A stretch of 64,000 nt of DNA from Octopus vulgaris (taxonomy: Eukaryota), in contig OX597842.1 of assembly GCA_951406725.2 (NCBI GenBank), positions 6,696,001-6,760,000 on the forward strand, written 5' to 3'. Below are positions 20,501 to 26,500 of the stretch, in pieces. Position numbers and translations under genes: made by a program. A model generated the notes under the pieces. The model worked only from the letters and a program-made list of their open reading frames with translations. It made no database searches and was not told where the DNA came from. The first letter of the stretch is position 1. Each line of letters opens with the position of its first letter.

Positions 20501-23500
20501 CTTAGCCACAAAAGTTGAGCTAAGAAATGGATAATTATAATTATTTTTTTAAAGAACATTTTTTGTCAAACACTGCCTGACACTGAGCTGTGAGCAAGTG
20601 AAAGTTGATATTTTCAACACGACACAGTTGAAGAAATATCTCTATTATCATACCGTGAATTGCCATAACAGTCATCATTATTATATTATTATAACTACAT
20701 TATTATTGCTATTATATATCTTGCCATTCATTTACTTTTTATTATATTATTTGCCTTCCTTTTATTGTTTTCATATCTTACTTTCAAAGTAAAACTCCTA
20801 CTGTGTTACAAATTATGCATGTAACCTCCCTTGAATGTCACTTTCATAGAAAATAAAGATGTTGTTGTTATTAATCCATTTATTTCCTCAGACATATTCC
20901 GTTTCTAGAATAATGGAAACAGCACGTGCTACCACATGTATTTGTAGCTAAAAACTCTAATGAGGACAATGATGATAGTGAAAATATTGAAGTTTTTCAC
21001 ATTTTAATAATAATAATAATAATAATAATAATAATAATAATAATAATAATAATAATAATAATAATATACAATTATTATTATTATTATTATTATTATTATT
21101 ATTATTATTGTTATTATTATTATTATTATTATTATTATTATTATGTGTAGTATTTTATTATATTAATGCGTTGAAGTACCTAAAACTACTATCATCTAAA
21201 ACCAGTTATCTGTTGAAGGCTTTTGCCATATATGTACAAGGATTTCAAAATTCCTCACAAGCTACACTATTCTTATCAAGTAGGAACATTCCTGACAGCC
21301 TAAAGCATTCCTATCTACTCGAAAAATAAGCTTTAAAAAAAACTGTAGATGTTAGTAAAACCAAAACTGAATTTCTTCCAAATTATATATAATTAAATCA
21401 AATCTTATCTATGGTTGTTAAGAGAAGGTCCATTGGTATATAGAGAAATGGTTGTCTATATAACACAGGTGTGTGTGTGTATGTGTGTATATATATATAC
21501 ATATATCTATCTATCTATATATATATATATATTGTATATATATATATAAATGTAAATCCGCATACATAAGTACATATACATATATATATTGATAGGCATA
21601 TATATATATATATATATATATATATATACATGTGTGTGTGTGTGAGTAAATATGTTTTAATATTTTGGTTAAGCTCTGATGAAGCTGTAAGTCAACTATG
21701 AGTCCGCTGCATCTTATGGCAAAAACAGCTGTAAGCTAATGAATCTAATTAATTAATTATTTTTTTCGTTTGTCATCTTTTTTCTAATATGTAAATATGG
21801 ATAAATATGTGTATAAATATGTATATGTATAAATATCATATATGTATATATGTAAGTATATATATGATACATGCATGAATATATATAGGTATGTATATAT
21901 GTAAATATGTATATATGTGTGCATATGTATGTAAATATTATCATATAAATGCACATACATATATGTTTGTACATGTATGTGTATGTGTGGGGGGGTGTAT
22001 TGCTTGTTTCTCTTGAGTTTCATTATGAAATATGGCTTCTTAAATGGTTTACATAGAATAATCTCTAAGAACATTCAAGAAAATAGTTTTAGAATGAAAT
22101 ATTTGAAAAAGAACCAGAGTAGATTGAGAAAATACAATAAAGTGGAAAGACTGCGATGAAAAGAAGCAAGAAAAGTGAAATGAAAACATTAAGAAAGCAG
22201 GAATGATATACAAGGCAATGAAATGGTAGATGTTGATATGTGAAAAGGGCAAGAATAGATTGAAATGAAAAAAGAAAATGGAAAGTAAAAGAAAAAATTG
22301 ACATAAAGATGAGAAAGAAAGGGGAAACTTTTAGAGGAAAATGTTGAAGAATTGTTAAAGTAAATATGTTAATTAATACGAAACTACGTTTTGGAAAATA
22401 CGAAACTATGTCTATAAACTTGACCTTCAATGTTGCACATAACTTTAGAAAGTTCTTCAGAAGCGTTTAAAATATTGGTGCATTTTTGTCTGAATATTTT
22501 AAACTATTGTGTAAGCTGGGGTAATTCCAGCATGTTTCTTATTGTCGTATAATCTTTTTGCTTTTTGCCTTCGTATGTATGTACATGTCTATTTGCTTGT
22601 ATTCTACATTCTCAAATGTTTGTTCCTCTCTCTTTCTAGAACAGATTATGATTTAAATTAGATTTGAGTTGTTAACTATGAAGGCAGATCTCCATATAGC
22701 GTGGAGTGCTCTTTTATTTAATATGTACACTTATTTGCATGTTATACCCTCAATTACATATATCTGTGTGTTTGTGTATATATATATATACAATATATAT
22801 ATATATATATATAGTAGAATAAGAAATAGAACGTCCTTGGTACAATATTATATATTTGAAAAAAGTGAATAGAAAAGGCTTTTCTGATAATTTTTCTGCT
22901 TTAAGAATTAAATGTTTATAAGTAAGCATCAAATTATTTAAGTGGAAAAATTATCAGAAAAGCTATTGCTATTCATTTTTTCAAATATATATATATATAT
23001 ATATATGTGTGTGTGTGTGTATGCATGTTTGTTTTCCTATACCAGTATAATTTTTACATTTGATTTACATTTTTCTCATTTGTTTTTCTTATTATACAGA
23101 AACCTGACTGCATTATGGGCGATGGTAATATGGAATGGATGAAAACAGAGGTAATATGGATGGGCAGCATTAGTATTAGCATTCTGTGGAATTATGAGAC
23201 ATAGTATTGTGCTAAAGGATGTGCAGACGATTGGCAAACTACAGCTAAGTGCTTTGTGTTTTGGCAGATAGTAAGAACAAACGTTCGTAGATATTGGCAG
23301 GATATTGAATGACTAAATATTCAGTATTCGGAAAGAAAAGAGGAAGAAAAGAAGACATACTTCAAGTAAGGTTTTTAGTCCTGGCGAAAACTGACCTAAC
23401 TCGGAAGCATCACGAATCACCTTCTTCGACCTGGCACTAAGTTTAGGATTTATTGGCATATCGTAAGTTTTGTAGAGCAACGGATGGCAAGAGATGTTTT

Positions 23501-26500
23501 CTAATACAGCTGGACTAGTTCCACGAAATTCTCGACTCATGCTCCCGAGGATATCACTGAAGTCCATTGAACGGTTTGGAGTGAGTCGTGATGTGTGAGA
23601 AGAGGGTCTTGAATACTCTCTAGACCGGGACCCTTCTCGAGAAGTCTTTCTATGAGCCGAAGAAGGATAGTATGGTGGCTCAAGTTGACTATATTGATGT
23701 TGTTGAGCTTGATGTTTATAGTAATCAGGCTCTGAGGGAGGCAGCTTTCCAACTCCGGCAGCTGGGTGATGTGACTGAGGTTGCGACTCGGCTGGTTTTT
23801 GTGGTTGTGGTTGTGGTTGTTGCACTTGTGGAGGAGGAGGAGAGGGTGGCCTCTGTGGGATTGCCTGGACTGGTTCCTGGATAACTGCTGCTGCTGGTGG
23901 TGGTGGGGCTGCTGCTGGTGGTGGTGGGGCTGCTGGTGGTGGTGGCGCTGCTGCTGGTGGTGGTGCTACTGCTGCTGCTGCTGCTGGAGGAACTTGCTGC
24001 TGACTTGCAGCTTCCTGTTCGGGGACGTGGTTTTGCTCGGTGGACTCCATGTAAGCCAGTTACAGAAGCTATCAGTTCAACAATATATAATATGTACAAG
24101 ACTCTATAAAAATAACCAAGCTATGGGCTGGTACTCTCTGTTGTGTGGAGGAGTGGTGGGAGTTGTGTTGGAAGTGGTTGTCGTGGTGAAAGACAAACAA
24201 TGATGAAACACCTCTAATCTATAGAGGTACTAATTATAAATAATGTATATCTATATATACACGACAATCGTATATATATTTGTATATGTGTTTATGCAAG
24301 GTGAAACAATTATGTCCTCTGGATAAACAAAGCGGAAGCTGTTTATTGCTTGTAGTTCCGGTTTAAGTAAAGAATATTTTCCAAAATGTGCGCAGCAGTG
24401 TTGTCACAATATAGCTTCATATATATATAAGTGTATATATATATGTGTGTGTGTGTTGTATATATGTATTATAAATGTGTGTATAATATATGGGTGTATG
24501 TGTGAATCTCAGTATAGTCTGGTTTCACTCCAAGTTCACTTGTTGTTGATTGTTTCGTTATTCAGGTCTTCGAGGAATACAACCACAAATAATAATAATG
24601 CTAATAATATTACTAATAATAATTATATAGTAATAGTGTTCAGCTGCCAAGTAATATTCCAATCCGTTGCTAGGTATAAGAAAGGTTGGACGAAAACACA
24701 CCGAACGGTGTAGCTTGAAGATTGAGCGTTGACTGAAGTGAAGTGAAATTTATCTACATCAGCCTGTTTCAGGTTGTCTGGTAAAAAGGTTTATAATAGC
24801 TGCCATAGGTGGTAGGAGGAAGTACGAGATGGGGGCGAAGGAGGTGGAGCACGATGTGGGGGAGGTGGGTGGAGCAGGAGGGTTAAGTTTAGTTTAGTCG
24901 AAGATGGTTAAGTAGTAAGATACAACAAAAAAAAAGAAAAAGCTGGTTGGTTGGTTGGTTGGTTTGTTATCTGAAGGTGGTAGGGGTGGGTGGTAGGAAT
25001 GCAGTCTTTAGACTCTCAGACATCTGAGGTGTAGGAGGAGTTGGCGCAAAGAAGAGTAGGTGGTGGTGGTGGTGGCGAAAGTGGCAAAGGTGGTGCAGAT
25101 GCAGAGGTAGAACGTATATGGAGAAGAAGATACCAGACCCGAGACAGACAGACAGATGAATAGAAGAGACTGAGAGGAGGAGGAGATAGTGAACGAGTGA
25201 AAGTGGGAGTAAGAGAAACTAGTAGTGTGTGCCAACTACATGATGATGATGATATATATATATATATATATATGCTTGTATTTTATTAAAAATGTGTTGT
25301 TTTTTTTTTCAGAATAGAGAGTCAGGTATGAAATAGCTAACATGTGAGAAAATCTAAAAATTGGTAAAGTGTGTGTATATATATATATATATATATATAT
25401 ACATATCTATATATTAGTATATATACATGTGTATATATATATATATATATATATATATATTAATATATATACATGTGTATACATATATATGTATATATAT
25501 ATGTATGTATGTGTATATATATATAGGTATGTATAGATATAAGAATATATAGGCACACACACACATATATATAGGTATGTGTGTGTAGCAACTAACACCT
25601 AAAAATGGTTACATAGCTGTGTTTAATACCTGTACAATGAGAATGCTTAACAAAAATGCAGTCTATTTATTTTCTTAGTCGGCGGGGGGGGGGGGTCCTT
25701 TTTTTTTTTGTTTCTTTGGGTTTTCTATTTCTGTTTTGTAAAATTTTTATTTTCATTGTTTTCTATCTTTTGAAACTGTAAGGTAGGTTCACCTGCTGAT
25801 GATGATGATGATGATTACAATGATGATGATGATGATGATACAAACATCAGACATTACACATATTTGGAGGTCTGAGGTGAACCTATATGTGCTTCTGATG
25901 TTGTTGTTGGGCGGTAGCGGTGGTGGTGGTGATGGTAGTCACCACAGCAGTGAGAGAAAAAAAGTTGCTAAAGTTTGCATCCATTTTAGCTAAGTTCTTC
26001 GGAATTTATTACAGAAAAGAAAAAAACTGCATAAGTGTGTATATATATATACATACACAGGCACACACATATGTATACTTATATACATATATGTGTATGT
26101 CTGTATATATGTATATGTTTATATATATTGCAGCGTCTGTCTATTTTATTCTGACATTCCTCCTGTTTGTTTTTAATTCACATATTCTACCCCACTTCCT
26201 TAATTCCTGTACGTCTGCCTTCCTTCATTCTTTCATACCTTTATTCCTTCATTTCTTTCCCCTCCCACAGCTTTCCTCAGCATCTTATCTCACCTTGTAC
26301 CTCACCTCATCCATGCTTCAATGCCATGCTATCTATTTTCACATTTCATCACCACCACCACCACCACCACCACGGCTTCAACTTCACCACATCTTTTACT
26401 ATCACCACTCCTTACATACCTTGGCATCTGCGATGCAAAATCTCACGTACACACATTCTCCTGTCACTACTACTCACCTACTCACTCACTCCCAATACTA

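Follow-up and report, generated by a model that had tools for sequence, protein, structure and literature searches.

A transcribed catchin/myorod exon inside a muscle myosin heavy-chain gene of Octopus vulgaris

In bivalves (Mytilus, Crenomytilus, scallop, oyster), catchin/myorod is described as an alternative product encoded by the myosin heavy-chain gene (PMC12040844; PMC3912159, citing Yamada et al. 2000; articles identified by PMC number are cited here from excerpts). In a 64,000-nucleotide (nt) stretch of the Octopus vulgaris genome (assembly GCA_951406725.2, contig OX597842.1, positions 6,696,001 to 6,760,000 of the forward strand; hereafter the window), we find a unique exon within a muscle myosin heavy-chain gene that, by sequence comparison, is the cephalopod orthologue of catchin/myorod, because its terminal module is 57-61% identical to that of known catchins, it joins the rod at the same junction, and it groups with its relatives in a tree. 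Octopus catchin is a transcribed new member of a known protein family, the exon of which was previously predicted in gastropods (PMC3912159).

Results

The catchin exon and its predicted product

The catchin first exon starts with an ATG at 24050 on the minus strand and runs through 230 codons to a phase-0 end at 23361, immediately past which a GT donor forms its 3′ boundary. An in-frame stop lies 9 nt 5′ of the ATG, and the stop-to-stop frame begins at 24059. The host intron measures 12,793 nt, from the upstream myosin exon ending at 30738 (...KIKELQ) to the downstream exon starting at 17944 after an AG, and the frame continues across the junction into an 11-residue stretch of the myosin rod. 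Thus the 230-codon ATG exon with a phase-0 donor in a 12.8-kb intron, which a preliminary description had read from the letters of the window, is borne out. The features concerned are listed below in window coordinates.

23361..24050, minus strand: coding part of the catchin exon (230 residues, phase-0 GT donor, single genome copy)
17888..17944, minus strand: shared acceptor exon (19 residues), the first rod exon of catchin; contig ends match 17943-17915
3508..16178, minus strand: open exon chain downstream of the acceptor exon, with AG/GT ends
30738..30828, minus strand: last myosin-only subfragment 2 (S2) exon, phase 0, read from sequence
24051..24778, minus strand: 5′ untranslated leader of catchin, ~680-730 nt, covered by contigs of runs X1, X6, X11 and X17 and contiguous with the coding part in single contigs of X6, X11 and X17
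24790..24798, minus strand: TATA-like element, candidate internal promoter just 5′ of the outermost contig end; a weak call in an AT-rich region
23883..23990, minus strand: Pro-Ala tract (aa 21-56; 17 P + 17 A), mostly CCA/GCA codons, with a tandem repeat at 23885-23986
23565..23651, minus strand: Ser/Arg-rich basic stretch (aa 134-162, net charge +6) that carries an RKTS motif (S137), predicted disordered
23361..23564, minus strand: conserved catchin module (aa 163-230), predicted helical; from the alignment and AlphaFold2

All 14 downstream exons have AG acceptors (14/14) and 13 have GT donors, the last exon being read through to its stop. The catchin chain is open throughout and gives 230 + 833 = 1063 residues (~121 kDa), close to the ~1070 proposed at the outset, or ~1066 by our own arithmetic should a candidate tail exon just outside the window be used. 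At about 1,065 residues the product has no motor, and its 833 C-terminal rod residues are common with myosin. Full-length myosin would join 30738 to 17944 and bypass the catchin exon. Scoring of 37 candidates in the 2.8-Gb assembly gave 1 match, so the exon is present as a single copy. The motor-domain exon of the host gene has PDB 3i5f as its top match, ahead of other myosin entries; 3i5f we take to be squid myosin, and the next-ranked entries presumably scallop.

The candidate tail exon is a short alternative one on the minus strand, ~110 nt outside the first base of the window, where an AG is followed by 12 codons and a stop; it could pair with a GT donor that the last exon of the window contains at 3537.

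Assembled contigs join the catchin exon to the myosin rod

The exon stretch is contained in 20/24 listed sequencing runs (9 studies), and four runs, from 4 studies and with 3 organism labels, were aligned. In all four (4/4), contigs exit the genome at 23360, and the 29 letters that follow, identical in each run, are the exact reverse complement of 17943-17915 at the start of the acceptor exon; the in-frame splice of 23361 to 17944 predicted by the preliminary description was thus found in every aligned run. A single contig runs from 24727 (X6 and X17) or 24755 (X11), through the ATG, to the junction, and the most 5′ contig end, in X1, lies at 24778. These ends at 24727-24778 fall near the TATA-like element, and contigs are unable to define a transcription start; the catchin transcript likely begins at an internal promoter. 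The leader also carries, on the minus strand, a 25-codon out-of-frame upstream open reading frame (ORF) at 24420, and a second ATG at 24759 that is immediately followed by a stop.

Several points weigh against a transcribed catchin. The loose contig ends are 29-30 letters long, just below the 31-letter criterion for a bridging record; the runs are taken to be RNA by a guess; and cephalopod catchin is so far known at the level of genome and contigs. We accept the junction despite its fewer than 31 letters, because the match is exact, coincides with the predicted donor and is repeated in each of the runs. Alternatively, the ORF could be a relic that is silent, a separate gene nested here or an artefact of retrocopying. 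This explanation draws on the lack of a DNA control and on no run being recorded as RNA, but it has to face the exact splice to a myosin exon in 4/4 runs, the single assembly copy and the intact conserved module, and we regard its probability as close to negligible. As to particular forms of the exon, an internal cassette exon was rejected for the stop upstream of the ATG and the contiguous leader, a nested separate gene for the splice to myosin, and a retrocopy for the one copy in the assembly.

The octopus exon belongs to the catchin/myorod family

A search with the last 110 residues gave 8 relatives among 106 candidates, and a module profile search gave 50 relatives out of 8000 scored candidates; 'catchin protein [Elysia marginata]' and a protein from Ostrea edulis are among these 50. 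The structure of myosin genes is the subject of PMC3912159, a study reportedly by Kollmar and Hatje. The 156-residue exon part of P0035 reads identically to the Mytilus row in Fig. S3 of PMC3912159, so far as that figure is cited here. Against this mussel-type protein the octopus exon is 57% identical over 74 residues (E 6e-26), and against the Elysia entry 61% identical over 66 residues (E 6e-23); the similarity to bivalve catchin over the last ~70 residues is therefore present and, with the junction and the contigs, the proposed catchin/myorod isoform is upheld. A 14-residue junction sequence is common to the octopus exon and six published catchins, and in the excerpted alignment of these six all end in the module and then join a 12-residue rod sequence (PMC3912159).

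A tree built from 55 rows, 49 of them different, over 79 columns and with rough support, places the octopus exon with six other rows at 100/99, and these clade-mates are probably other cephalopods. The genera for which PMC3912159, as excerpted, gives a catchin exon are Aplysia, Biomphalaria, Crassostrea and Lottia, and none of its six aligned catchins is from a cephalopod. The restriction to bivalves that the preliminary description had implied was overstated, since the exon has been predicted in the gastropods Aplysia, Biomphalaria and Lottia.

Conservation and predicted fold are confined to the rod-proximal module

Across the 55 rows, 25 columns are at least 90% conserved, all of them within aa 173-230, and S179, S205 and S208 are invariant (55/55). 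The module motif RGTSP...HP...LSARS...PGLK.LLE is present at the end of the octopus unique exon. AlphaFold2, run with 51 sequences, gave confident helices only in aa 161-230 (164-174, 180-187, 190-196, 206-221 and 225-229), where the per-residue confidence score (pLDDT) was 80-93 in six of seven 10-residue blocks and 65 in one, and the upstream part was without regular structure. Because conservation and the confident fold are confined to the module, we favour it as the active part.

The module resembled no deposited family or structure in the searches made: Pfam gave no family above its cut-off for the octopus exon or the catchin heads, the best hit in a PDB sequence search with the module had an E of 0.85, Foldseek against PDB gave 0/83 matches at E <= 0.001, and the ESM Atlas gave no usable match. 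A homodimer prediction for the module, in which the alignment was not used, gave no verdict (score 0.00).

The Pro-Ala repeat is variable and the RKTS motif is not general

The Pro-Ala tract, QP stretch, Ser/Arg block and complex last ~70 residues are all present in the exon as first described, and the unique part is longer than in bivalves as was claimed (230 residues vs 156 in mussel and scallop). Exon-encoded lengths across rows range from 109 to 262 residues with a median of 168, and the octopus length is the third longest, exceeded by a row whose count begins at an upstream Met and by an unrelated row with Ala-Pro repeats; published catchin heads have ~156-205 residues by count, that of Lottia ~205 by eye (PMC3912159, in the part cited). 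The longest pure P/A run has 27 residues in octopus and 8 in P0002, which is 90% identical; in the remaining five members of the clade it has 4, and one non-clade row reaches 10 (3/55 rows were unparsed in this count). In the contigs spanning the Pro-Ala region 23879-23995 (3/3: X6, X11, X17) there are 99 letters vs 117 in the window, and the difference of 18 nt is an in-frame loss of 6 codons. An assembly collapse is unlikely because the window allele has no repeated 31-mer, and the repeat is likely an in-frame length polymorphism among individuals. Comparison suggests that aa 1-160 form a disordered, fast-evolving extension within which a CCA/GCA trinucleotide repeat has recently expanded.

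The preliminary description had viewed the Pro-Ala stretch as a functional arm. According to this explanation, the stretch would be a selected rigid arm, like those of the A1 light chain and MyBP-C, with an actin-binding end switched off by protein kinase A (PKA) at RKTS. The tract itself is real, RKTS is real and appears as KKTS in the closest relative P0002, and Pro-rich extensions occur throughout the clade. A spacer arm would be expected to show a conserved linker and a distal binding element, but here the repeat is not kept in the closest relatives and varies among individuals, and the tip distal to it (aa 1-20) is acidic (net -4) and unconserved. The basic block and the module are both on the rod side of the repeat, so that their reach cannot be increased by the arm. 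PKA gating through an RKxS site fares no better, as the motif [RK][RK]x[ST] is present in 2/7 clade members and absent from 5/7. We therefore consider this arm improbable. Some observations weigh against dismissing the extension altogether: the octopus clade is Pro-richer (16-23% vs 4-17%) and Gln-richer (10-13% vs 0-9%) than most relatives, and its heads are longer (202-230 residues, one counted from a second Met, vs the median), so that selection may act on a stiff extension without acting on the exact repeat.

The regulatory site known from mussel is likewise not shared. Thr141 is the one mapped N-terminal phosphosite of mussel myorod (PMC4410989, PMC12040844, in the excerpts used). It aligns to octopus Ala215, in a column that reads A in 38, T in 16 and S in 1 of the 55 rows, and octopus therefore has no phosphorylatable Thr at this position. 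In the aligned sequences Thr141 is a property of a subset and not of the catchin family, and the neighbouring S216 could substitute for it. If catchin is phospho-regulated, comparison would make the invariant S179, S205 and S208 (or S216) better candidates than S137 or the Thr141 position.

Catchin-like proteins probably reach beyond the named molluscs

A HMMER scan of 1.84 billion representatives returned 40 matches at E <= 0.001. Nine divergent exon-like ORFs in two groups (P0061, P0064-P0069, P0071 and P0072) keep the module end and the donor position, and P0090, a full-length protein of 1028 residues, has the module joined at the same rod position. The rod of P0090 is 51% identical to that of octopus, vs 72-77% for 13 named molluscan myosins, and in a FastTree tree of 45 rods it lies on a long branch among unnamed myosins (support 1.0), outside the named molluscs. 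P0057, P0062, P0063, P0073 and P0075, in which the match was broken into several stretches or was very short, were discounted along with P0074 as likely repeats, of which P0063 was inspected, and P0070, an apparent degraded oyster-type copy, was excluded from the rod and module comparison. These sequences suggest that the catchin family likely predates molluscs, and the divergent proteins are possibly, at a guess, from annelids.

Other features of the host gene

Three similar copies of a motor-domain exon (LEDQI...NNNSSRF) on the minus strand, near 61686, 59542 and 57855, likely form a mutually exclusive cluster, and two P-loop/loop-1 exon copies with differing loops, ~3.9 and 6.0 kb past the window end, are a second likely mutually exclusive pair. 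One other locus in the assembly has a rod-exon match at 43% identity and is probably another myosin II or paramyosin gene.

Discussion

Based on these findings, we propose that octopus catchin is a thick-filament modulator acting via its helical module, a reading that we hold to be somewhat probable and favour over a module tether and a PKA-gated Pro-Ala arm. Assembled transcripts that join the catchin exon to the rod exons, likely from an internal promoter, would yield the motor-less protein. By analogy with mussel work, catchin would dimerise through its coiled coil, likely co-assemble with myosin on thick filaments through the shared rod, and load onto the paramyosin core, where it would replace a part of the myosin molecules. 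Then the rod-proximal module, likely not the Pro-Ala stretch, could tune filament assembly and neighbouring myosin heads. In the mussel, as excerpted, myorod co-polymerises with myosin and its head alters the properties of the polymer, phosphorylated myorod doubles myosin ATPase in co-filaments only, and actomyosin superprecipitation is left unaltered (PMC4410989); myorod has also been detected in striated larval oyster muscle (PMC13762225, in part).

Two sets of published results weigh against a role as thick-filament modulator. In vitro, F-actin is bound by mussel myorod and also by peptides from its N-terminus (PMC12040844, PMC4410989), and the catch muscle of scallop is enriched in catchin, at the level of mRNA and of protein (PMC5963113), which favours a tension-holding role. 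They lend weight to an explanation in which the conserved module is a thick-to-thin filament tether for catch-like holding in cephalopod smooth muscles such as those of skin papillae, beside twitchin, the Pro-Ala stretch being incidental. Unphosphorylated mussel peptides that contain Thr141 also bundle and precipitate actin (PMC12040844), cuttlefish papillae stay tensed in the absence of nerve input and are relaxed by serotonin (PMC6059360), and the module is retained across molluscs in the 55-row alignment. On the other hand, purified myorod has no effect on superprecipitation and twitchin-actin binding is described as the current catch model (PMC4410989), the Thr141 switch is Ala in most rows, octopus included, and gastropods, as well as probably some animals outside the molluscs, also have the exon. 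We regard the tether as possible but doubtful, and retain the modulator as the preferred role.

A literature search found no report of a cephalopod catchin/myorod among the papers listed, though earlier cephalopod muscle studies could still mention one. The literature found for octopus with catch-like and twitchin does not name myorod, and the excerpted text of a review on cephalopod arm muscle contains neither 'catch' nor 'rod protein' and summarises myosin studies as finding full-length isoforms without tissue specificity, a headless product being unmentioned there (PMC4757648). A 2025 review, as excerpted, still terms myorod specific to bivalve catch muscle (PMC12040844). Our protein searches are silent on existing cephalopod annotation, because full-length catchins, published ones included, are absent from their results. 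The surprise is moderate, because the catchin family itself was already known.

The value of the octopus exon lies in what it makes accessible. The molecular basis of holding in cuttlefish papillae is given as unknown, with myorod unmentioned in the part of that study cited (PMC6059360), and the catchin exon offers a unique 1.4-kb probe and a unique antigen to ask whether this tension uses the bivalve machinery. From the comparison it also emerges that Thr141, the one mapped phosphosite, is not a general feature; the three invariant serines and the ~70-residue helical module, which matched nothing in Pfam or PDB, stand out as the part worth studying. A broader proposal, which we offer as speculative and rather unlikely in its entirety, is that catchin, far from being peculiar to bivalve catch, may be a thick-filament subunit of ancient spiralian origin that has a small helical fold of its own, is kept and transcribed in cephalopods without the mussel phospho-switch, and is the missing molecular marker of the smooth muscle by which cuttlefish and octopus keep skin papillae and suckers in place in a catch-like way.

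Set beside other systems, the Pro/Ala-rich low-complexity stretch of octopus catchin resembles, without homology, the linkers of essential light chain A1 and MyBP-C, these too being on thick-filament proteins. The A1 linker carries a basic actin-binding tip. Whereas those linkers have their binding element at the far end, the far end in octopus is acidic and unconserved and the conserved element lies beside the rod. The Drosophila myosin rod protein is likewise a headless product of a muscle-myosin gene from an alternative start; it begins farther upstream in the rod, by ~260 residues, and has an unconserved N-terminus with no sign of the catchin module in the excerpted comparison (PMC3912159). 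With the gastropod catchins (Aplysia, Biomphalaria and Lottia Mhc6, and the Elysia entry), octopus catchin shares exon position, junction and module, and with Lottia a long head with Pro-rich stretches, whereas the long pure Pro-Ala repeat is found, among these as excerpted, in octopus only.

The bivalve catchins differ from that of octopus in several respects. The octopus unique part is the longer and its extension is Pro/Ala/Gln-rich, while that of bivalves is Ser/Thr-rich; octopus has Ala where mussel has Thr141, as scallop likewise does (PMC3912159, in the part cited); and the octopus host is without a described bivalve-type catch muscle. Nevertheless, as in bivalve catchin, a unique first exon is joined at the 14-residue junction to ~830 shared rod residues (833 in octopus), and the module is 57% identical to the mussel type.

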